The translations under genes and the position numbers were made by a program. From Candidatus Omnitrophota bacterium (lineage in GTDB: Bacteria > Omnitrophota > Gorgyraeia > Gygaellales > Profunditerraquicolaceae), in contig JAPLLR010000046.1 in NCBI GenBank assembly GCA_026387455.1, forward strand, positions 4,921 through 68,920: a DNA stretch of 64,000 nucleotides, written 5' to 3'. The notes below the pieces were generated by a model. The model saw only the letters and a program-made list of their open reading frames with translations, ran no database searches and had not been told where the DNA came from. Below are positions 1,820-14,100 of this stretch, one piece after another; within the stretch, counting starts at the first letter, position 1; every line of letters starts with the position of its first letter.

Positions 1820-2893
1820 ATGGAAAGTAAGAAATTAGATTTAGGCCCGGTTCAGAAACTTATTGATGACCCCTCAATATCCGAGATTATGGTTAATGGC
1901 CCTAAAAAGATATTTGTGGAGAAAAACGGGAAAAAGATGTTAAGTGATAGTGTGTTTTCCGGAGAGGAAGAGCTGCTCAGAACTATAGAAAAGTTTTTTA
2001 GTGCCGTTGGGAAACGCGTTGGTAAGGATATCCCTTATGGAGACGTCTGTCTTGAGGATGGCACACGCGTAAATATAATGATGGCGCCTGTTTCACGTTT
2101 TGGTACAGCAGTAACCTTCAGGAAATTCTCTAAGCAGATAGGCTCACTCCAGGATCTAATTGCTAATGGAACCTTAACCCAGAAAGCAGCCGAATTTCTG
2201 ATAGCCTCCATTAAGGGCAAGATAAATATAATATTTTCCGGGGGTACGGGAACTGGCAAAACTACGCTTTTGCAAATGCTTTCTAATTATTTCGCTCCCC
2301 AGGAAAGAGTAGTTACTATTGAAGATGCCGCAGAACTAAGATTCACGCAGGAGAACTATATTTCTATGGAGACAAGGACGCCTGATGAATTTGGCAAGGG
2401 AGGGGTTAGTCTGAAAGATTTAATTTCCAATGCCTTGCGTATGACTCCCGATCGCATTATCGTAGGCGAGGTGCGCGGAGAAGAGGCGATAAACATGTTT
2501 CAGGCTATGGCTACGGGCCATTCCGGGACCATAGGGGTTGTGCATGGAAATTCACCTAAGGATGTGGTAGCCCGCTTAGAAACTATGGTTTTAATGTCAG
2601 GGATGAATATCCCGATGTTAGAATCAAGAAAAATAATTGCTTCTACTATTAATTTAATTGTTCATTTAGAAAGAGTCCAGGATGGTAGCCGTAAGGTTAC
2701 CTATATCACTGAAGTCAGAGGTTTGGATAATAATGAAATCCTGCTTAATGATTTATTTAGTTTTAGTTTTGAGAAGATGGAAAATGATAAAGTAATAGGA
2801 AGCCTTAAGCCGACAATAAAATATTATCCTTTATTCTTTCAGCGCTTTCAGAAACTAAACTTATTAGCTAATGATATATTCGTTAGTGATTAA
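1820..2893 (+). CDS. cpaF: CpaF/TadA-family (Tad/Flp-pilus type, T2SSE superfamily) secretion ATPase
   Basis: 357 aa. Motifs seen: ISEIMVNGPKKIFVEKNGK; Walker A GGTGTGKTT; VVTIEDAAEL (Asp box); Walker B/Arg finger LRMTPDRIIVGEVRGEEA; His box QAMATGHSGTIGVVHGNS; C-terminal RKVTYITEV. This is the full motif series of CpaF/VirB11-type hexameric ATPases. Confidence 0.85.
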   Translation: MESKKLDLGPVQKLIDDPSISEIMVNGPKKIFVEKNGKKMLSDSVFSGEEELLRTIEKFFSAVGKRVGKDIPYGDVCLEDGTRVNIMMAPVSRFGTAVTFRKFSKQIGSLQDLIANGTLTQKAAEFLIASIKGKINIIFSGGTGTGKTTLLQMLSNYFAPQERVVTIEDAAELRFTQENYISMETRTPDEFGKGGVSLKDLISNALRMTPDRIIVGEVRGEEAINMFQAMATGHSGTIGVVHGNSPKDVVARLETMVLMSGMNIPMLESRKIIASTINLIVHLERVQDGSRKVTYITEVRGLDNNEILLNDLFSFSFEKMENDKVIGSLKPTIKYYPLFFQRFQKLNLLANDIFVSD

Positions 2894-2900
2894 ATGAGCC

Positions 2901-2929
2901 TTTAACGGACGCAATATCCGTGATATAAT
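2901..2929 (+). promoter_or_regulatory. possible extended -10 promoter for the second ATPase
   Basis: TGaTATAAT at 2921-2929 with a weak -35 TTTAAC at 2901-2906 (17-nt spacer). It follows a small hairpin, ACGGA-cgcaata-TCCGT (2905-2921). Confidence 0.3.
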
Positions 2930-2993
2930 ATAAACAATGTGTAACGGCAGGCATAAAGCGAATAGAATTTAAGGGAGAAAGACGGCTAAGCTT

Positions 2994-4322
2994 ATGGAAA
3001 AAGAAAGAATTGCGATAGAAAACGAGATTCTGGACAGGCTGGCAGGCAAGATCTTTCTTTTGCAGGACCGGGCGAATAAGCGCGATATCATTTTTCAGAA
3101 GTTCCTGGAGGTGTATAATTCTATCCCCGGACAGGGGCTGGTGAGCAAGTTAAAAAACACGGACATGGAAGTCCTTTTTAATGATTTTTTTTCTTACGGG
3201 TTGATCGACGAGTTTCTTTCTGACCCAAAAGTAGAAGATATCATGATCAACCATCTTTCTCCTATATACGTGCATAAGACAAACTCCGGGTTGGTTAAGA
3301 CAGATAAGAGGTACACCTCCCGCGAAGAGCTGGATCTGTTGATTAAAAAGCTGGTTATTTTTTCTGGCAGGAAAGAAATCAAGAAGATCAACAATATAGA
3401 GCTTGCTGAGGTTAAAGGAAGAGGCAACATAGTTTATTCTCCTTTCGGGCCGCAGATCACAATCACGCGCGCCAAGGAAAAGCCGCTAAGCATAATTGAG
3501 TTGATTGAGAATGGTACGCTTAACCCTGAGATCGCTGCGCAGTTCTGGTTTTATGTGGAAGGATTAGGGGTTAAGCCCGCAAATATTGTCATATCCGGCG
3601 GGCCCGGGGCGGGAAAATCCACGCTCTTAAACGCGCTTTTTAGTTTTATTCCCGTACATGACCGCATTGTAGTCATTGAAGATACTCTGGAGTTAAATAC
3701 CACCCTTCAGGAGAATTGCTCGCGCCTGGAAAGCGATGAAGATGTATTGCTTATGGATTTGGTGAAGAACTCCCTGCGTATGCGGCCGGACAGGATCATT
3801 GTCGGCGAGGTCCGCGGCCAGGAAGCCCAGGATTTGATGACGGCGATGAACATCGGTAAATACTGCATGGGAACAATGCATGCTTCTACCGCCAGGGAAA
3901 CGATCATCAGGCTTCAGAACGAGCCGATGAATGTTCCGGAAGTATTGGTAAATTTAGTGGATGTATTTGTGATTATGCGGCGTTATAATTTAAACGGCAG
4001 AATTAGCCGCGTGGTCGGCGAGCTGGCAGAGACTGCCGGTATGGCGGATAAGACGATCTTGCTTTCTACGCTATGGACTTATGATTTAGGAACGAATAAT
4101 TTTAAAGAATCTTCCGTAGGCAGCGAATACCGCGATAGGCTTGCGTTAGTGAGCGGTAGGAGCACAGTGGAGATTATGGAAGAATTGAAGTTTCGCTCCG
4201 GTATTATCAGGGCGATGTTGAAAAAAGGCATTAAGGAAATGAAGGATGTAACGGAATTTTTCCAGAGGTATGCCGCTGATCCCCGAGAGGCGGCCGCTTC
4301 ATTAGGCATTAAGAGTAGTTAG
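2994..4322 (+). CDS. second, divergent T2SSE-superfamily (FlaI/VirB11/TadA-like) secretion ATPase
   Basis: 442 aa. Motifs seen: VEDIMINHLSPIYVHK; Walker A GGPGAGKST; IVVIEDTLEL; LRMRPDRIIVGEVRGQEA; His-box-like GTMHAST. It is a paralogue of the preceding gene but clearly diverged, with a longer N-terminal domain. Confidence 0.8.
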   Translation: MEKERIAIENEILDRLAGKIFLLQDRANKRDIIFQKFLEVYNSIPGQGLVSKLKNTDMEVLFNDFFSYGLIDEFLSDPKVEDIMINHLSPIYVHKTNSGLVKTDKRYTSREELDLLIKKLVIFSGRKEIKKINNIELAEVKGRGNIVYSPFGPQITITRAKEKPLSIIELIENGTLNPEIAAQFWFYVEGLGVKPANIVISGGPGAGKSTLLNALFSFIPVHDRIVVIEDTLELNTTLQENCSRLESDEDVLLMDLVKNSLRMRPDRIIVGEVRGQEAQDLMTAMNIGKYCMGTMHASTARETIIRLQNEPMNVPEVLVNLVDVFVIMRRYNLNGRISRVVGELAETAGMADKTILLSTLWTYDLGTNNFKESSVGSEYRDRLALVSGRSTVEIMEELKFRSGIIRAMLKKGIKEMKDVTEFFQRYAADPREAAASLGIKSS

Positions 4323-4335
4323 GGACACTTCCTAC
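4319..4335. repeat. left inverted repeat of the transposase cassette
   Basis: TTAGGGACACTTCCTAC. It contains the TAG stop (4320-4322) of the upstream ATPase gene. Confidence 0.9.
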
Positions 4336-4440
4336 CTTAGTAACATCATTTATATCAAGCACTTAGGATAATCAGGCTAAAATTCCACAAATTTTTCTGT
4401 TAGATTTTGCCACTTCCTTCGTCTATTATAGTGAGGAGGA

Positions 4441-5058
4441 ATGGTTATGTCTAGGACGGCACGCTTCATTCCACGGTATGGCTATCTACACATTATGTCA
4501 CGAGGTAATAATCGCCAACGCATTTTCTCATATGCACGCGACTATCGATTTTATTGCTCATGTTTGAGGAAACTTAAGGCAGAGGAGTCAGTTAAGATTC
4601 ATCACTATTGCTTGATGCCGAACCACCTACACCTTTTGCTTGGTGTAGGGCCGGCAAGCAATGTCGGCCGCTTCATGCAAAGGCTTGGGCTGAAGTATTT
4701 CTACTATTATCGCGCAAGGCGCGATTATATAGGGCATCTATTGCAAGGTAGGTTTAAGAGCAAGATAATTGTTGATGAAAAGTACTTTCTGCAATGCGGA
4801 AAGTATATTGAGTTAAACCCGGTGCGAGCGCAGCTGGTGAGTTTTCCGGAAGAATACGCTTATTCAAGCTATCGGCATTATGCCTTAGGAGGGGAAGATG
4901 AGATCGTCGATGACGACTTTTTCTATCTTAGCCTGCACAACGATGCCACTCGTCGAAAGGAGCTTTATTCAAATATGCTCTTTGATGAGAAAGGGTGTGC
5001 GAAACAATTGCATATTGATTCTTCTAACTTAATGTTTAACAATGAGTTAATAGAGTAG
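4441..5058 (+). CDS. REP-associated tyrosine transposase / IS200-like Y1 transposase (HUH superfamily, COG1943-like)
   Basis: 205 aa with a strong SD (GAGGAGG) before the ATG. HUH motif in HHYCLMPNHLHLLL; GHLLQGRFKSK; C-terminal YIELNPVRAQLV..PEEYAYSSYRHY with the catalytic-Tyr region typical of this family. Confidence 0.8.
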   Translation: MVMSRTARFIPRYGYLHIMSRGNNRQRIFSYARDYRFYCSCLRKLKAEESVKIHHYCLMPNHLHLLLGVGPASNVGRFMQRLGLKYFYYYRARRDYIGHLLQGRFKSKIIVDEKYFLQCGKYIELNPVRAQLVSFPEEYAYSSYRHYALGGEDEIVDDDFFYLSLHNDATRRKELYSNMLFDEKGCAKQLHIDSSNLMFNNELIE

Positions 5059-5072
5059 GAAGTGTCCCTAAT
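5056..5072. repeat. right inverted repeat of the transposase cassette
   Basis: GTAGGAAGTGTCCCTAA. It contains the TAG stop of the transposase (5056-5058) and, on the other strand, the TAG stop (5068-5070) of the convergent TPR gene. Confidence 0.9.
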
Positions 5073-6132
5073 ATCTTTTTTTAGAGCGAATAAACTCGGC
5101 TTTTTCAGATGCCTCTTTGGCTTTATCAGGTTTATTCATCTTTCGATAAAACTTTGCCATATTTTCCAGAACCTTGGCTACGTTTAGATGTTCCTGCCCA
5201 AGATTGCTCATCATTATCTCCAGAGAATCTTCATAAATATTCACTGCTTCTGCATATCGGGTTTCTTTTAAATAAAGCATAGGAAGATTATCTAAAACCC
5301 TGGGTGCATCCGGATGCCAAGGGCCGATATAAAGGTCATTGATATCCATTAGCCGTTTATAAATAGGCTCATTGATTTGTGACCATAGCTTGGCTGCCTC
5401 TGATTTAAGGCGGTTTATTGCCTTGTCAATGCTGGCATCCTCTTGATAAAAACAACTCTTGAACACTCCCCAGGCATACCTGTAATATTGTTCAGCTTCT
5501 GTAAATTTTTGCTGTTTTTCATATAATTTACCCATATCGGATGCCAAACGAATCAGTTTAGGATACTCTTGTCCGGAGTCTGCGATTGCCTGTAGGGAAG
5601 TCTTTAAAATACTTTCCGCCTCGGCGTATTTATGCTGATCCAGATATAAAGAACCTAGGTGGCTACGGACAATAGCAACGGCAGGATCATTGCTGCCTAA
5701 GTTTTTCTCCAGTATGTCTATAGAATTATTGTAAGAACTTTCCGCCTCGTTGAATTTACGCCACGCCTGATAATTCTCTCCCAGGGCATTCCAGACTTTA
5801 GCTGTATAAAGATTATCCAGCCCCAGGGTTAATTCATAGATTCCCAAAGCTTTTTGATAAAGCTCGTCAGCTTGCGCATAGTTGCCTTTAATCTTATAAA
5901 GAGTTGCTAAATTATTAATCATTGCAGCATCGTTAGGATGATCAGGCCCGAATTTTTTTTCAATTACGCCCAGGGCGCTAGTGCCCAGATCTATAGCTTT
6001 TTGATAATCCCCATAGATATAGGCATCGTTATATCCGTCAAGATATTCTTCAACTTGCCAGGATATATCTTCTTCAGCGTAAATTGAGGTAAATACAACA
6101 GCTATAAAAATGGCGATTAGAATCTTGCGCAT
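5068..6132 (-). CDS. secreted/periplasmic tetratricopeptide-repeat (TPR_12, kinesin-light-chain-like) protein
   Basis: 354 aa. N-terminal signal peptide MRKILIAIFIAVVFTSIYA. Repeated units of about 42 aa of the form Y..A..LY..AL.I.EK.LG.DHP..A....NLA.LY. GGAGG SD 7 nt before the ATG. Confidence 0.8.
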   Translation of the reverse strand: MRKILIAIFIAVVFTSIYAEEDISWQVEEYLDGYNDAYIYGDYQKAIDLGTSALGVIEKKFGPDHPNDAAMINNLATLYKIKGNYAQADELYQKALGIYELTLGLDNLYTAKVWNALGENYQAWRKFNEAESSYNNSIDILEKNLGSNDPAVAIVRSHLGSLYLDQHKYAEAESILKTSLQAIADSGQEYPKLIRLASDMGKLYEKQQKFTEAEQYYRYAWGVFKSCFYQEDASIDKAINRLKSEAAKLWSQINEPIYKRLMDINDLYIGPWHPDAPRVLDNLPMLYLKETRYAEAVNIYEDSLEIMMSNLGQEHLNVAKVLENMAKFYRKMNKPDKAKEASEKAEFIRSKKRY

Positions 6133-6392: not shown

Positions 6393-7637
6393 ATGGAAGG
6401 CCTAATGATTGCAAAGCCAGCAAGATTACTTATTTTAGTTTTAATAATTGTTTTGAGCCTATTGTCTTCTAGGGTTGAGGCAGAAGATTATTATAGCGGC
6501 AACCCCTACTCTTCTCCGGAGCCAAGTTCTTCCGACAATCAGGCCCCCAATAATAGTTACAATAATTCCACGGTGATAAGCTCGTTTAATCCGCAGCCCG
6601 GCGGAGTAAATAATATTCCTAATAGTTACAATAATTCCACGGTGATAAGCTCGTTTAATTCGCAACCAAGCGCAGCTTATAAGGCCCTTAATAGTTCCAA
6701 TAATTCTATGGTGATAGGCTCGCTTAATTCGCAGTCCGGCGCAGCTTATAAGGCCCCTAGCAATTACAATAGTTACACGGTGATAAGCCCGTTTAGCTAT
6801 AACACATCTTCGCAGCCCGGCGGAGGATATAATAACTCGGGCAGCATAACAAGCTATCCTAACAGTTACAACAATTCCACGGTGACATATTCGTTTAGTT
6901 ATAACACACCTTCGCAGCCCGGCGGGGGCTATAATAACTCGGGCAGCATGACAAGCTATCCTAGCAGTTACAATAATCCCATGCTGACAAGCCCGTCTAG
7001 TTATACCACGCCTTCGCAGTCCGCAGAAGCTTATGATAACTCAGAAAGTATATACTCCAGCTCTGCTTCGCTATCCAATTACAATAGCGCTACTAATACG
7101 CCGAATTATGATAATACTGTGGCTCAAAGCGCCCCAACAATATATAATGATTTATCAGAAGCTATTTATAACTCTCCGGTAGTAACACAAGCCGAGAAAT
7201 TTGGTTTAAGCGTAGAGAAAATCGGAGGGGGGGTAGGGATTACGCCGTACGATCCTGTGAAAGATGCTGTTGTATCAGCTCTTAACGAAGGTTATGAATC
7301 AGTTGTAGTAACCGGCGAGGGGGTATTGATACCCAATCCGATACAAGGTGACAAGAAAAGCGTAGTTATAGACAATAATAATCCTTCCCTTATCGGGCCG
7401 AATGGTCTTTATAGTACGTACAGGTCTACAGCAGATTTGCTCGGGGATATTTCTTCTCATGATGCTAAAGTGGCTGCGGCAGCATATACCCCAACTTCAG
7501 TAGCGCAACCGACTGGCATGCTTTCTAATTATAGCCCGGCACCTGTAAATTATAAAAGCGATACTCCAACAAGTCAGAATTATCAGTATAATGTAGCGAC
7601 CCCACAGGTTGAAGATCCCCAAATAAAGGTAGAATAA
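6393..7637 (+). CDS. secreted low-complexity Asn/Ser/Tyr/Pro-rich repeat protein with a more ordinary C-terminal domain
   Basis: 414 aa. Signal/anchor KPARLLILVLIIVLSLLSSRVEA. Repeats of NSYNNSTVISSFN.QPG / SYNT.SQPGGGYNNSGS.TSYP. The C-terminal region of about 170 aa (AEKFGLSVEKIGGGVGITPYDPVKDAVV...) is not low-complexity. No function recognised. Confidence 0.7.
   Translation: MEGLMIAKPARLLILVLIIVLSLLSSRVEAEDYYSGNPYSSPEPSSSDNQAPNNSYNNSTVISSFNPQPGGVNNIPNSYNNSTVISSFNSQPSAAYKALNSSNNSMVIGSLNSQSGAAYKAPSNYNSYTVISPFSYNTSSQPGGGYNNSGSITSYPNSYNNSTVTYSFSYNTPSQPGGGYNNSGSMTSYPSSYNNPMLTSPSSYTTPSQSAEAYDNSESIYSSSASLSNYNSATNTPNYDNTVAQSAPTIYNDLSEAIYNSPVVTQAEKFGLSVEKIGGGVGITPYDPVKDAVVSALNEGYESVVVTGEGVLIPNPIQGDKKSVVIDNNNPSLIGPNGLYSTYRSTADLLGDISSHDAKVAAAAYTPTSVAQPTGMLSNYSPAPVNYKSDTPTSQNYQYNVATPQVEDPQIKVE
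6541..7010 (+). repeat. in-frame tandem nucleotide repeats inside the Asn/Ser-rich gene
   Basis: A 39-nt exact repeat, aatagttacaataattccacggtgataagctcgtttaat, occurs at 6552-6590 and 6621-6659 (69-nt period). A second repeat family, ttcgcagcccggcgg...tataataactcgggcagcat, starts at about 6809 and 6911 (102-nt period). Confidence 0.85.
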
Positions 7638-8139: not shown

Positions 8140-11100
8140 ATGCCTAATCAAAAGCCACGGACAGAAGAAGAGAATTCGCTAGAGCAACCCGAGACCCAGG
8201 TGAAATTTGTTTCCAAGTTCCAGGCCTGGATCCGCGTGGTTGCTTTTATTGTTGTAGCGGTCTTTCTTCCGGAGCAGGTAGCCCAGGCAGCGCAGTATGA
8301 TTGGCGCGTGCTCTGGAACAAGCCCGGCGTGACAACTTTTACCCCCAACTATCTTGCTAATCCTGATTCTCTGCGCAATCTGGATATCCCCCTAACCATA
8401 AAGAAGATCCTCAGTGACATCGCCAATAAGCAAGTCAATGCCATAAAGCTTTCTGACAATCTTACCATTGAGCTGGATAGGCCTCTAGAAATGTCCACTG
8501 TGCGCATTGAAGAGATCTTCAACTGGCTCAAGGGCAGGCCTTGCGGCTCAAAAGCGCTTTATGATTTCTTAAGCTTTAAGGGTATCCAAGCCTCTGAGCA
8601 AGATATCGCAGTAATGGCTTTGACCGTGGATATCTTAAATAACGTGGTTAAGCCTGAAGGAAACCCCGAAATTATTCTCAACTCTCTATATGCTTTGTCT
8701 AAGGCTTCTGAGTTCTTCGGCCTTAAGACTTATCCGGTTAAGCTTGCAATAGGAGAGCCTGTTGCTTCCTTAGCGCCATTCTTGGCCCATGTCAACGGCA
8801 ATCACTATGTCTTAGTTACGCGCATAGCAAATGGCAAAGTATATTTCAGCGATCTGCATAAAGAAGAATTTTTGGCCCTAGATAAATTTGCCGAGAAGTT
8901 TACCGGCAATGCTTTAGTCACTCAGCTGATTGATGGCGTTACTGAGCTTAGCGTTAAAGAAGCGATGCAGGTGATGGGGGCAAATGACGATGATTTTGTT
9001 GGGCCTCCAGCTCCAGCGCCCGCTCCACCTAGCTCAGACTTTGTTGGGCCTCCAGCTCCTGCACCAGCTCCTGCACCTGCATCTGCTCCTGCGGCTCCAA
9101 GCTCGGCTTCGTTAAACTCAGGCTATCAGCCGGGCGGCTATAATGGTAATACTTGGGTTCCTCCTTCTGTTGCTACTGCTGATGGCGGTAGGGTTGCTGT
9201 AGGGCCGGTTAGTTCAGGGATAGCCGAAGCCTATAACGCAGCAAATGCAGCGCCTTCACTATCTGCGCCGGCTCCATATTTAGATCGTTTTCAAAGTTCT
9301 GATCTAGGCACAGCTCCTACACCAAAATATGTGGCTCCTTCAGTATCTGCGCCGGCTCCTGTCGCTCCAGCGGCAATAAAGTCTGCTGATTATGCAAGAC
9401 GGCAACAAGCCGAAAACGCATTTAGCTATAGTCCCGGAGCAGGCACTAGTGATTATTATAAAGTCCCGGTAATAGACCAAGAGACAGGGCAGACCATAAG
9501 AACAGAATTAGTGAACAAGCACATTACAGATAGTGCTGAATCTCGCAGAGTCGCTGAAGGATTATTAAAAGATCAGGGCATACAGGTCCAGGGATCTACC
9601 TTGACAACCCTTAAACCTTTAGAACAGCTTGGCACCGCACCTCTTCTCCCGGATAAAATTTTATTTGCAGGAGATGGTAAAACGCCATTTTTGTCATCAC
9701 TCCCTTCAGCGACTAACGGTATTCCTAATTTGGTGGAGCACCAGATCTTGGTGGTGGCTGAAAAAGGAACTCTTCATTATAATATGTATGTTCCTCAAGC
9801 AAACGCTGATATTGCGCCTATCTATGTAGGAGATCATGCTCAGCTGAAAGGGACTCCAGGTTGTCCGAGTGGAATTTGTATGGATGCTGGCTGGAAAGGT
9901 GATACTGCAGCTCGTAATGATGGTGCAGCTTTTGTAGATATTAAAACATGGACGGGATGGCATACAACTACAGGCGAAGTCGCACCCTATGAGCAATTTA
10001 CTAATGGGGTATTTCATATTGGTAAAACTGCGTCAGAGCCACATTTCTCAGGAAACCCTATTGAGAGAGTAATTTTGCAAGATAACGTTGCAGTAGGCAT
10101 TAGTACGCTAGGCCAAACTTCTGCTTATCAACAGCCGGTTGTACTAACTGATGGTACGAAAGTTTCTGCTGAAGGCTGGAGAAATAATTATACGGTTAAT
10201 GTAGTCAAACCGGTTGTCCAGGTAGGACCGGATTTGAAAAACACAAGATATGATGGTTTCTATGTATCGCATGATCAAGCTGGGAATTCTGTTGGAGTAA
10301 GCCCCCTGATGACTAGAGTGGACATAATGGCAGATGTAAACCAGAGGAAAAGTCAGGGGGAGCTATACACACCAACCATGCCCGGAGATAATGTCATAGT
10401 TTTCGCCGGAGATGTAAATTCTTATATTTCAACCGGGGCTGCGATGACTAAAGTTGAGGCATTTGCAAGAGTTCCTAAGATTACCAATGATTTTTATAAT
10501 TATCAGTGGGGCAATAATTTTTATCAGCCTAAAGAATTAGTTGGTTCAGCAGAAAATTATGCTACCGGGCAGGTAATACCTTTTACTAACCCTCAGGAAT
10601 TTATTGATAATACTCATATTAGAATTGCCGCTCCTTTGCAGGATGGAGTTAGCGCTACCGGAGAAATAACCAGTATGTCCGGCTGGAAACAGGATGGTTT
10701 TATGATCCCGCTTGCTCCTTTTACCTCGGCCGACGGGATGGGTTACACAAAGAACGAGCTCACCGGAAAAGTAAAATCGTTCAAGATAGAGGGGGTTGAT
10801 TTTAAAGTTGATTATGCCGCCAAGCAGCCCGATATATTTAATCAGAAGTTATCGGTATATGGCACCGGAGAAGCATTCGCGGTTTTACCGCCTTATAAAA
10901 CGGCGACTGATGGAGGGGCGAGCATCTATATGACAGGGACTAAGGTTGAATTAGGTGTGGGATATAAGGCGGGAGATTCAATAGCAGTTATTTCAACTCA
11001 AGGTATTCAAGGAGGCCGGATAGAATTTCTCGTGCCGAATTTAGATATTAATAAGAATATTCAAGATCAGATAAAAGATGCTACCCAGCCTATGGTTATA

Positions 11101-14100
11101 CAAGATATAAACTTCAACCCCGGATACCAGGCGCAGTTTGCTAGGGATATAAATAAGGATAATACGATCGCGCTTTCCAAGGATGTGTTAGGCGGTAAGG
11201 TTGAGTTCTGGGGCGGGGGAGTAAAGTCATTGTACAGTGGCGAGATAAAGCCTTTAGGCAACAAGGAAGCTTTCTTTAATACTCACGCTGTCGCCGATAG
11301 GAACTTGGGCTTGGAAACAATATACAAGTTTGATAAGCAGGGCCTGACCTACAGCGGGTTACATGCATGGGAGCTGAATAAGTTCATTACCCCTTCAATA
11401 CAAGATCTAACAGGAATTCAGGAAGAGATGAAGAGTACCTTCATCGGAAAAACCCAGAACTATAATGAGGTATTTATTAATAAGGATCAGACGGTTTTCT
11501 ACAAGCCGGAAATATACAATGTTGGCGGCGCAAAAGCAGGACGCATCGAAAAGCTTTCTGTTGAAAAGCTTGCTGATCCTGCGACGTTTAGGACCAGCGA
11601 GGAAAGCAAACATCTTTACAAATCCACCGCGCTTACTCCGGATGCCAAAGTCGCTATTATTCATGCGCAGATCACCGGGCCTGAGCAGCTTAAGACTGAT
11701 GCTGCTACCTTTAGCCCGATGTTTGCGAATGTGCGGCACCAGTTTGAAGGCGGGATAGAAAAGTTTGTTGCAGCCGTGGAGCTTAATGACGCAGGTAAGA
11801 TAAAAGGCGAGGTAATTGCTATCGCTGATGTAAGAGCCTCTGCTGGTCTGCGGGATATCTTTAAAAATAAAGTTGAGATTAAAGGGGATAAGTATGCTTT
11901 AGAAGGGCTTAAAGGGAAGACGTATGAGCTCAATACAGCGGGTTTTGTGCAAGGGCAATTCATCAAAGGCAAGGGTGGCGCGTTATCCGGATGGAATAAT
12001 ATAGATGTGACAACAGATCAATTCCTTGCAATTACCGGAAGACAGGTAGAGAAAACTGATGGGTATCTTAAGGGTGTTGATCTTTGGATTTCGGATGGCG
12101 GCAGCAGAATCCAGGATGTCGGCTATGATAAGGCGAATGCGGGAAGTGGTTTTTATCGTCCGTTAGCTGCGGATAGGGCAGCAGATTTCAACAAGACTAG
12201 AATATGGAAGAACGAATTTGGCAAGGAATATGTAAAAATAGACACCAAATTAGGCGCACTTCCCGGTGATCAGCGCGATACACCCTACCTCATGGTTACC
12301 GATAAAAAAGCGCAGCCGGTCATGGTTGGCATAGGAGAAACTAACACGCAGATGCTGGAGATGTTCGACCAGCTGCACATGGCACGGGCCAACAACGATA
12401 CAGCGCGCATCGCAGAAATAAACAAGAACATAGAAGCAGAAACAACCAGGATAAAGGCGCAGTCCGCAACTTCCGGCAGTGATGGCTGGGATAAGGTATT
12501 TAGCGAAAAAAGGGCTCTGGATTATTCTAAACAAGGTAAATATATCTATGCTGCCGGAAACCAGGTTGCTACTTTTGCTATTAATGAACTTGTCAGCGGC
12601 AATGTGGCCCTATCAGGAGATTTCCGCGGGACCGCTAATACCGGAAGTGTTCTGAATATGAAAGATGAGATCGCAGGGGTCGCCACCACAGTTTTCTTAA
12701 ACAAAAATCAGGAGGCAGCTTTTACAAAAGGTATTTTTAGCGGCGGCAAAGGATTCGCTGATCCAGCCCATGCGGATCTGGGGCAGGTGCTTATAAACAA
12801 TCAAGGCCAGGTTACCAGCGGATATTTCTATGCCGGCACACCTAATCAGCGCGCTACAGAGATCCAAGAGACTATTGTAGAAGTCAAGACAGCAGATGCG
12901 CAAGCTGCAACCGGAAGAATGTTGCTTAAGGATTATTGGTATGAAGCAAAAGGAGCAGCAGATCCTTCCAAAATAGAGCTTCTTGGCGGCACAGTCAGGC
13001 AGGCGCAGGTAGCAGGCTATAATTTGTTGACCAAGGAAACTTCGCTTATAGATTTCTCAAGAAACGGTAATAAGGATAATACTTTTGTGACCAGGGGAGA
13101 TGCTGCTATTCCGTGGCTGGTGCCTGTGGTGGATGGATTTGTGCCGGCAAAAGGCGGGGAAAACAATCCGGATAATCAGGCGCCCTATGCAATGGCGTAT
13201 GAATATAAAAAGGCAGCTCAGACGGATCCGGTGCACACCCTGATCAGCGGGCCGCAGCATCTGGTCTTCAGTCCCACCAATAAGATCACTTCCGAACAGG
13301 GCAGGGTAACCCGCGATATGCTGGACATGAAGAATATTAAGATCGAAGGGGATTCTGCTAGCAAGCCCATTCCTTTGTCAGCGCAGGTGGACAGAGATTT
13401 TAATGTCAAGGCAAGCAAGGGGTTTGAGTTTGTCGGCTCCGGGCAATTGACCACTGATGAGCGCGGCAATATGCAGTTTAATGGCAAGGAAACTAATGTC
13501 AGAGAATATGCCGGCAGCGAAAAAGCCCCTATTGACAGGATGACCCGTCAGGTGTTTGTCGAGGGATTAACGGAACCGATAGAAATGGAATTCCAGAAAG
13601 GCTGGTATAAGACAGATACATTCGGAAATCCTGCAGACGGAGCAGCTGAGGCGGTAGGACTTCAGGGAAAGATGTTTAAGGGCATGAAGCTGGACGGCAT
13701 GGGTCAATTCACATTTGAGGGAAACCATGTAAATTTAGTCCAGGAAATGAGACGTATTGAGGATGTTGAGAAGATAAACCCCCGTGACGCTCAAACTCAG
13801 GCTGCTCTTGAAGCAAAAGTAAATGACATAGTTGCACAAACAAAACCGGAGTTTTCTAAGCCCATCAGCATAGAAGAGGCGGTTAAGCAGATAGCCCAGG
13901 CTTATCTTGATTATAACGCAGAGGGTGCACATTATCATCCTAATGGTGTAGATCCTCGCGGACAGGATAAGAACTGTTTTGGCTTTGCTGTTGATCTTCA
14001 AAACAGGCTTGAACAGATAGGCGTACACAGTACCGTTATACAGGTGGGTGATGGGGATGATCATGCTGCACTTTTGGTAAGAACAGAGGGCGCCAACGGC

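Follow-up and report, generated by a model that had tools for sequence, protein, structure and literature searches.

The TIRtron/TIRYT class of elements was named by Di Nocera, De Gregorio and Rocco (2013, BMC Genomics 14:522; PMC3733652), in whose description TIRYT genes carry terminal inverted repeats with the consensus GGGGWSAS, a repeat may reach into the gene at its 3′ end, and the repeat termini donate TAG to flanking open reading frames (ORFs) (PMC3733652). Among the TnpAY1 transposases, subclass 2.1, with the key motifs NHVH, W[EQ], YIELNP and SS (Table 1 of PMC6006769), is equated with Bertels' Group 1 of the RAYT proteins (transposases associated with repetitive extragenic palindromic, or REP, sequences) and, probably, with Di Nocera's TIRYTs (PMC6006769). 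The tyrosine motif reads Y---Q in IS200 transposases versus Y---NP in RAYT/TnpAREP proteins, and subclass 2.1 does not have the residues with which E. coli TnpAREP recognises GTAG (PMC6006769). Here we analyze a cassette of this kind in a 64,000-nucleotide stretch of a Candidatus Omnitrophota contig (JAPLLR010000046.1; hereafter the window, numbered from its first letter), where a single transposase gene lies between two converging genes. We consider the element most probably (probability about 0.72) a TIRtron, that is, a TIRYT-type RAYT-like gene with its own leader and 16–17-bp terminal inverted repeats built on a G-run core, set in what was formerly a very short convergent spacer. Its parts and its two neighbors are as follows.

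2994–4322, plus strand: upstream ATPase of the type II secretion system/type IV pilus (T2SS/T4P) type, FlaI/TadA-like, 442 aa; its TAG (4320–4322) lies inside the left arm.
4319–4335, plus strand: left terminal inverted repeat (left arm), TTAGGGACACTTCCTAC; TAG 4320–4322 is the ATPase stop.
4336–4446, plus strand: non-coding cassette leader, with a block conserved in relatives (TTCTGTTAGATTTTGCCAC...CGTCTATTATAG) followed by the ribosome-binding site GGAGG at 4435–4439.
4447–5058, plus strand: transposase gene, Y1/HUH tyrosine, 203 aa, RAYT-like, of the TIRYT/subclass 2.1 type; its TAG (5056–5058) lies within the right arm.
5055–5071, minus strand: right terminal inverted repeat (right arm), GTAGGAAGTGTCCCTAA on the plus strand; it holds the transposase stop (5056–5058) and the TPR gene stop (5068–5070).
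5068–6132, minus strand: convergent TPR-repeat protein, 354 aa; its stop is CTA 5068–5070 (TAG on the minus strand), inside the right arm.

To establish whether the cassette behaves as a unit, we compared it with the corresponding site in related genomes, referred to below by locus number. In L096, which comes from a close relative of the window organism, orthologues of the ATPase (86% identical) and of the TPR protein (73%) converge across a spacer of 17 nt with no cassette between them, and orthologues of the window's next genes follow downstream of the TPR gene; cassette-free relatives, for which the earlier note on this DNA had called, thus exist. A metagenome scan with the TPR protein as query found a filled counterpart, L103, where the cassette occupies the same site between an ATPase and a TPR protein that are 93 and 82% identical to those of the window. 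The L103 cassette has about 94% nucleotide identity to that of the window (92% in the leader, 4336–4446), its 16-bp core TAGGGACACTTCCTAC is identical at both ends, its right arm is identical to the window's right arm, and its core arms again provide all three stops. Because the orthologous site is empty in L096 and filled in L103, these loci show that the cassette came or went as an arm-to-arm unit.

Moreover, the two filled sites record what has happened to the cassette since they separated. The transposases of the window and L103 share 92% amino-acid identity with a crude dN/dS of about 0.3, and among conserved residues identical codons make up 90% in the transposase, 84% in the ATPase and 82% in the TPR protein. 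These codon counts indicate that the transposase was co-inherited with its flanks under purifying selection since the window/L103 split.

Such persistence also bears on a different explanation, in which the gene is a domesticated, immobile HUH gene whose arms serve the host as protein-binding, mRNA 3′-end or termination elements, the overlap with stop codons being selected. One site has been kept over the window/L103 divergence with the gene under purifying selection, the window holds one copy, RAYTs in general show housekeeping-gene-like behavior (PMC5581495), the arms show no change between the window and L103, and the G-rich strand of each arm is the sense strand of the inward-reading neighbor, all of which would suit a host function. 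We nevertheless regard domestication as unlikely: terminator features such as a stable stem or a T-run are missing from the arm, 32 perfectly kept nucleotides are statistically unremarkable at a divergence of about 6–8%, the empty site in L096 shows that the neighbors work without the cassette, and TAG-flanked arms in L096 lie mostly away from gene ends.

Returning to the TIRtron reading, the arms themselves delimit the element sharply. Reading of the sequence and a pattern search both gave a perfect 17-bp inverted repeat, the right arm at 5055–5071 being the exact reverse complement of the left; the repeats noticed earlier are therefore real, with the right copy lying one base lower than the 5056–5072 first assigned to it. 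The repeat cannot be extended, as positions 4318/5072 and 4336/5054 are non-complementary, and the conserved core of the left arm, 4320–4335, is also present in L103. With up to three mismatches allowed, the only matches to TTAGGGACACTTCCTAC in the window are the two arms, against 0.06 matches expected by chance, and at least two matches occurred in 0 of 100 shuffled sequences. The arms bracket one HUH Y1-transposase gene and contain the TAG stops of the ATPase, the transposase and the minus-strand TPR gene, as had been proposed from the sequence alone. The same proposal held that no spare intergenic sequence is left, and this is borne out: the 9 nt separating the transposase and TPR stops belong wholly to the right arm, and free intergenic DNA amounts to zero on either side of the cassette.

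The gene ends at these junctions are genuine and not assembly artefacts. Pfam and NCBIfam profiles type the neighbors as an ATPase and a TPR protein. The transposase ends in ..I-E-TAG inside the right arm; its likely start is the ATG at 4447, 7 nt past GGAGG, which matches the public gene call, and public assemblies (two short Logan contigs) carry the 203-aa form, not a 205-aa ORF. A sub-threshold Rfam hit to DUF805b RNA at 5041–5061 on the plus strand (16.6 bits versus a gathering threshold of 35.6, E = 0.27), spanning the transposase 3′ end and the right arm, was taken as chance and set aside.

How the two neighbors fared differs. TPR proteins end in ..KKRY-TAG in the window and L103, in ..RKRY-TGA in L096 and, natively, in ..DRY-TAG in L107, so the TPR C-terminus is unchanged and the arm TAG stands exactly at the native stop position of the relatives. 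The closest homologues of the ATPase (85–89% identical) end in ..SLG(V/A)K followed directly by a stop, or in the short tails KREEL and KRQDLLK. In L096 the ending is ..K-TAA, compared with ..SLGIK-S-S-TAG (AGT AGT) in the window and ..K-H-I-S-TAG in L103; the ATPase tail has been remodelled, with its own stop lost and two unrelated codons added in the window (three in L103). The idea that cassette-free relatives would already have identical gene ends thus describes the TPR gene, whose end in L096 is the same (..KRY, stop codon in the same place), and fails for the ATPase gene. Between the ATPase lysine codon and the arm the window has AGTAGT (6 nt, 4314–4319) versus CACATCTCA in L103 (9 nt, reverse strand); the two junctions cannot be aligned, both are in frame, and their surroundings are 86–94% identical. 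A target-site duplication of TA was considered and not adopted: excision leaving one TA gives both genes of the window overlapping stops (TTAA), and the same reconstruction fails for the TPR gene in L103. TA on both sides of the cassette is missing in most relatives.

To classify the transposase, we combined profile searches, motif comparison and structure prediction. The protein encoded by the ORF at 4447–5058 matches Pfam Y1_Tnp with 42.5 bits, and it scores 65 bits against the NCBIfam model REP_Tyr_transpos (NF047646) versus 19 bits against the IS200 model (NF033573, cutoff 55). About 1,500 homologues were recovered from a large protein collection, those with a named source being mostly Candidatus Omnitrophota, and no extra homologue of the transposase was found in the window, where it is single-copy. 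In an alignment of 43 homologues, N59-H60-x-H62 (PNHLHLL), Y120-I-E-L-N-P (CGKYIELNP) and S140-S141-Y142 are invariant or nearly so, and the HUH histidines H60 and H62 as well as the catalytic tyrosine Y120 are intact in the window protein. An AlphaFold (AF2) model built on the same alignment (mean pLDDT 85) found its best Foldseek match in 4er8_A, the E. coli TnpAREP (E = 8.6e-9, TM 0.74, 160 columns), the runners-up being 2a6m, 2xma and 2f4f, which are IS608, ISDra2 and IS200 transposases (about 5e-6). Because of the YIELNP tyrosine motif, the 65 versus 19 bits and 4ER8 as the best fold, the protein is, on sequence and predicted structure, RAYT-like (the TnpAREP branch) and not IS200-like, which answers the choice between RayT and IS200 TnpA posed by the earlier note.

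An ordinary insertion sequence of the IS200/IS605 family, disfavored already by this placement, is a very improbable alternative. It would account for the Pfam Y1_Tnp match, for the size of the element (about 750 bp) and for the two to three homologues in some genomes; against it stand YIELNP in place of Y---Q, the IS200 profile score of 19 bits versus the cutoff of 55, symmetrical inverted ends instead of asymmetric subterminal hairpins, the failure to find significant end structure, the lack of a tnpB gene (the neighbors being the ATPase and the TPR protein), the lack of a second copy in the window, and a fold nearer to TnpAREP.

Within the RAYT branch, the transposase fits Quentin's subclass 2.1, Bertels' Group 1 and the TIRYTs of Di Nocera (2013). 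The corresponding motifs in the window protein are NHLH, LQ, YIELNP and SSY, of which one in four deviates (W to L). A longer relative, P0062, has a weak AT-hook-like GRPK in its tail.

To assess how widely the arms are distributed, we scanned 80 loci from GTDB species representatives and in each, with no motif prescribed, took the best inverted repeat having one copy in the upstream 400 nt and the other at the gene 3′ end. The relatives in this set carry the same GGGGACGNTTC inverted arms, and inverted GGGGACG[GTC]TTC arms occur in nearly all 80 loci, even where protein identity is as low as 40%, the hosts being Omnitrophota, Patescibacteria and Aminicenantes. When 153 arms are profiled, the outer G-run plus ACG, i.e., GGGGAC(G/A)NTTC, emerges as the conserved part. 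Conservation of the arm core across candidate phyla is striking: at a protein identity of 40%, Omnitrophota and Patescibacteria still have a core of 11 nt in common. The window G-run core AGGGACAC agrees with GGGGWSAS at seven of eight positions, and relatives have GGGGACGN. GTAG is confined to the window, L103, L003 (one arm) and L013, the others having ATAG, AGAG or GGGA there, so the inner GTAG/CTAC end is a peculiarity of the window's small clade.

The nearest relatives in other gene contexts, L003, L013 and L014 (65–71% protein identity), have the same layout. On the left, the arm TAG either serves the upstream gene as its stop or follows that stop in frame at a distance of 6 nt; next come a leader of about 100–200 nt with the conserved block and the transposase gene, whose TAG is part of the right arm. 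L003 also has a convergent radical-SAM gene that terminates on the outer TAG. The homologous left arm in L003 and L013 reads (C)TAGGG(G)ACGCTTCCTAC. The transposase TAG occupies the same right-arm position in at least 14 loci. Similarly, proteobacterial plasmid relatives (about 38% identity) bear textbook GGGGWSAS arms: an Iodobacter plasmid has the arm AATAACTGGGGTCAGAGCAAA with the core GGGGTCAG, and a TIRYT on a P. aeruginosa plasmid has the 32-bp arm AAAGGGGACAGATTTATTTTCCCTACTCTAAT with the core GGGGACAG and a transposase tail ..L-E-TAG, again within the right arm. Some related genomes have two to three divergent transposase homologues each.

Two further observations concern the surroundings of these cassettes. 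In L016, on a contig shared with L014, four arm-like copies GGGGACGCTTCT.TCC at 5698, 6575, 7386 and 8044 bracket the transposase together with adjacent transglutaminase-like and ORF6N genes. Cassettes of the window's clade recur at the ends of Tad/T2SS-like clusters (L003 3223–5713, L013 1705–4269, L096 950–3752, window 1820–5058), following two T2SSF genes in L003, L013 and L096 and a T2SSE ATPase in the window and L103; this placement could be due to chance, a hotspot or old linkage.

The sharing of stop codons can be followed across the same 153 arms. TA directly precedes the G-run in 41 of them; toward 31 of these arms an ORF of 80 aa or longer reads inward, and 12 of those 31 ORFs (177–834 aa) terminate on the TAG of the arm, with L096 and L103 adding cases; many other neighboring ORFs stop 4–14 nt from an arm. 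In L096, TA stands before 7 of 14 arms, usually one per doublet. Because these TA-preceded arms are mostly not at gene ends, the TAG seems to come with the arm or with the landing site and not to result from its role as a stop. Stop-codon sharing was already described in 2013, for REP termini, and needs no new mechanism.

A more ambitious proposal is that insertion is preferred directly 3′ of (T)TAG, amber stops serving as landing sites, and that the GGGGAC(G/A)NTTC-armed family forms a large, unrecognised set of Group-1-like RAYTs in Omnitrophota, Patescibacteria and Aminicenantes, some of them generating REPIN-like populations. We advance it tentatively, as a possibility against which we would still wager, and the insertion preference takes its cue from IS608 and ISDra2, which have tetranucleotide targets. 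If true, the element would join gene ends without a seam and could even swap a stop while leaving the protein unaltered.

The GTAG/CTAC ends of the arms and their inverted arrangement had led the earlier note to liken the cassette to REP/RayT units and to suggest a search for REP-like dispersal of the repeat. That description holds for the protein, which belongs to the RAYT branch and has inverted flanks, and not for the arms, which are not canonical GTAG REP hairpins. A single arm folds as a hairpin with only about −1 kcal/mol on either strand, 79–154 of 200 shuffles folding equally well or better (z about 0). Pair counts over 138 distinct arms give 81% paired, a marginal excess over the controls (78% for shuffled arms, 77% when each partner is shifted by one). 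The hairpin TAGGGA-CAC-TTCCTA, drawn by eye, was rejected since it folds no better than shuffles and the covariation in its favor is marginal. No significant structure was found at either cassette end, and no subterminal hairpins of the IS200 type. Such dispersal was not seen: no further arm copies or looser cores were found in the window or in 9 kb of L103, and a search of the window for double-foot hairpins (TAG-stem-loop-stem-CTA) returned one weak intragenic chance match only. The arm contains GACG, and we therefore also considered the CGTC-tagged REPs of Di Nocera (2013), which have an unpaired CGTC head, an AT-started stem of 8–9 bp and a CCA tail; the arms do not have this layout, and the candidate was dropped.

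Other genomes of the family do carry arms in number. There are 27 arms in 20 kb in L052, 15 in L059, 13 in 6.7 kb in L051 and 13 in L039, mostly as inverted doublets 30–50 nt apart, so that swarm-bearing relatives have about one arm per 1–2 kb. L096 has 12 GGGACACCCTT arms in 13 kb near a different RAYT, a protein of 160 aa that is 41% identical to the window transposase. Its doublets, GGGACACCCTT, a 12-nt spacer and AAGGGTGTCCC, lie at 3229–3266, 3865–3902, 8663–8745, 10138–10216 and 11232–11280, where they flank the 160-aa RAYT and scatter nearby, and a 174-aa gene upstream has as its stop a TAG joined directly to the first arm. In the cassette leader of L013, two tandem units of about 47 nt (3515–3607) sit at the conserved GTTAGATTTTGCC block, each ordered as GTTAG, a GC-rich hairpin with the loop ..ATAGGAAG.., CTAC and RCTTTTTGY; they resemble GTAG/CTAC-footed REP hairpins inserted 3′ of TTAG.

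These data allow the canonical REPtron to be weighed, in which GTAG-headed REP hairpins have been spread in many copies by a RAYT and the two visible arms are merely those next to the gene. The inner end of each arm does read GTAG/CTAC, the protein is RAYT-like, inverted-doublet swarms of the same motif exist in L052, L059 and L051 alongside the GGGACACCCTT arms of L096, and the leader of L013 has its two GC-rich hairpins flanked by GTTAG...CTAC. However, the 64-kb window and 9 kb of L103 yielded zero extra copies, against about one arm per 1–2 kb in the swarms, a single arm has about −1 kcal/mol and a pairing of 81% against controls of 78 and 77%, GTAG is not conserved in the family, and subclass 2.1 is without the GTAG-reading residues (PMC6006769). 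We therefore doubt that the element is a REPtron; the REP/RayT idea is right for the potential of the wider family and rather unlikely for the window genome.

For the TIRtron, a mechanism can be outlined from the HUH Y1 enzymes IS608, ISDra2 and E. coli TnpAREP (PMC6006769, PMC3479197). The enzyme would nick and rejoin single-stranded DNA at the outer arm boundary. Because one arm cannot fold, the structure recognised would be the stem formed by two inverted arms, and not a single-arm hairpin; this pair may come from the two ends of the cassette, or in other genomes from doublets at close spacing. Nicking and rejoining at paired arms would have carried the cassette, or its arms, to the present site. 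In this clade the arm has TAG as its outermost triplet, read inward from either side, so that an abutting neighbor gene ends on the arm, and the transposase TAG within the right arm is an old family trait. Under the TIRtron reading, stop sharing arises as a by-product when a repeat that ends in TAG is wedged into a compact genome; an insertion preference next to (T)TAG possibly contributes, and no separate device is involved.

Several points weigh against the TIRtron reading. Whole-cassette mobility is drawn from one comparison of an empty with a filled site, which may reflect a gain or a precise loss, and the cassette has kept its place from the window/L103 split onward, as a domesticated and immobile gene would also do. 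A simple reconstruction of excision restores both stops in the window (TTAA) and not in L103, and therefore no single insertion model fits both. In the protein, the 65 bits against REP_Tyr_transpos are under the equivalog cutoff of 80, the W[EQ] motif has L in place of W in the window clade (WQ in the wider family), an HTH-like (helix-turn-helix) C-terminal domain of the Bac_DnaA_C, HTH_23 or HTH_28 kind was not detected, Pfam at E ≤ 1 finding only Y1_Tnp in the window protein and in five longer relatives, and the window protein, at 203 aa versus a median of 238, stops short of the basic GRPK tail. Finally, cleavage at the arm boundary and recognition of a two-arm stem are steps that we infer by analogy.

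Of the remaining parts of the cassette, the leader may have promoter function. A sigma-70 scan of its plus strand scored no canonical site, and significant secondary structure was not found in 4336–4446. On the minus strand, a strong sigma-70-like site at 4453–4425 (TAGACA, 17 nt, TATAAT; 11 of 12 matches) overlaps the transposase start and faces outward via the left arm, antisense to the ATPase gene; its L103 counterpart, TAGACA...TACAAT, is in the same place.

The wider neighborhood has features of its own. From 8140 to 64000 the plus strand is one unbroken frame of at least 18,620 codons, running off the window end; the orthologous region has called genes of 16,970 and 16,983 residues in L096 and L097, and the frame belongs with the giant genes that have been reported for Omnitrophota. 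Two T2SS/T4P-type ATPase genes stand in tandem on the plus strand, at 1820–2893 (357 aa) and 2994–4322 (the 442-aa FlaI/TadA-like neighbor of the cassette), the former being missing at this position in L096 and L103. At 6393–7637, also on the plus strand, lies a gene for a 414-aa protein in which S, N, Y and P are very abundant; it contains repeated NSYNNSTVISSFN-like units, matches nothing in Pfam, and has a counterpart of 416 aa at the same position in L096.

For annotation, these results mean that IS200 is the wrong name for the gene, which should be recorded as encoding a RAYT-like (TIRYT) tyrosine transposase and as having terminal inverted repeats. The empty site, the filled site and the sister copy are well-resolved evidence for a poorly studied class, showing a TIRtron that comes and goes as an arm-bounded unit and then persists under purifying selection. 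To specialists on RAYTs and REPINs, the REPIN-like swarms beside Group-1-like RAYTs in some Omnitrophota may be of interest, and the arms are candidate substrates for TIRYT biochemistry. The TIRYT class, its GGGGWSAS arms, the overlap with the gene 3′ end and the TAG-donating termini are already described; new here is an example from Omnitrophota, a phylum that earlier TIRYT studies did not sample.

Taken together, the comparison with known systems places the locus closest to the TIRYTs. Like them, it has a RAYT-like Y1 gene with terminal inverted repeats instead of REP hairpins, a core matching 7/8 of GGGGWSAS and a repeat overlapping the gene 3′ end; elsewhere in the genome TIRYTs often have no repeat family or a small one, and the Iodobacter and P. 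aeruginosa plasmid examples have the same layout. It differs in its host phylum, which was unsampled in 2013, in its very short arms (16–17 bp) with just three G, in a protein without a basic C-terminal tail, and in that both outer TAGs are used by neighbors. With subclass 2.1 (Quentin et al., 2018) and Group 1 (Bertels et al., 2017) it shares N-H-[VL]-H, YIELNP and the SS after the core, an apparently low copy number (one copy in the 64-kb window), wide taxonomic spread and the lack of a canonical REP beside the gene, whereas it departs from subclass 2.1 in its length (203 aa vs. a median of 238), in L-Q for W-[EQ] and in having no detectable HTH-like domain, and some family members in Omnitrophota and Patescibacteria have swarms of REPIN-like doublets, which had been reported missing from that subclass. 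E. coli TnpAREP (RayT, PDB 4ER8) is the best structural match, with HUH and Y---NP chemistry and a gene flanked by inverted copies of its presumed substrate; yet its sequence identity to the window protein is just 18%, and E. coli REPs are stable hairpins of at least 30 nt with a 5′ GTAG in hundreds of copies, unlike the arm of the window, which does not fold singly and for which no dispersal was seen in the 64 kb. The IS200/IS605 TnpA proteins (IS608, ISDra2) share the HUH/Y1 fold and, presumably, single-strand DNA chemistry, with insertion beside a short specific sequence as a possible parallel, but they differ in Y---Q, dimeric architecture, asymmetric subterminal hairpins and multicopy behavior.

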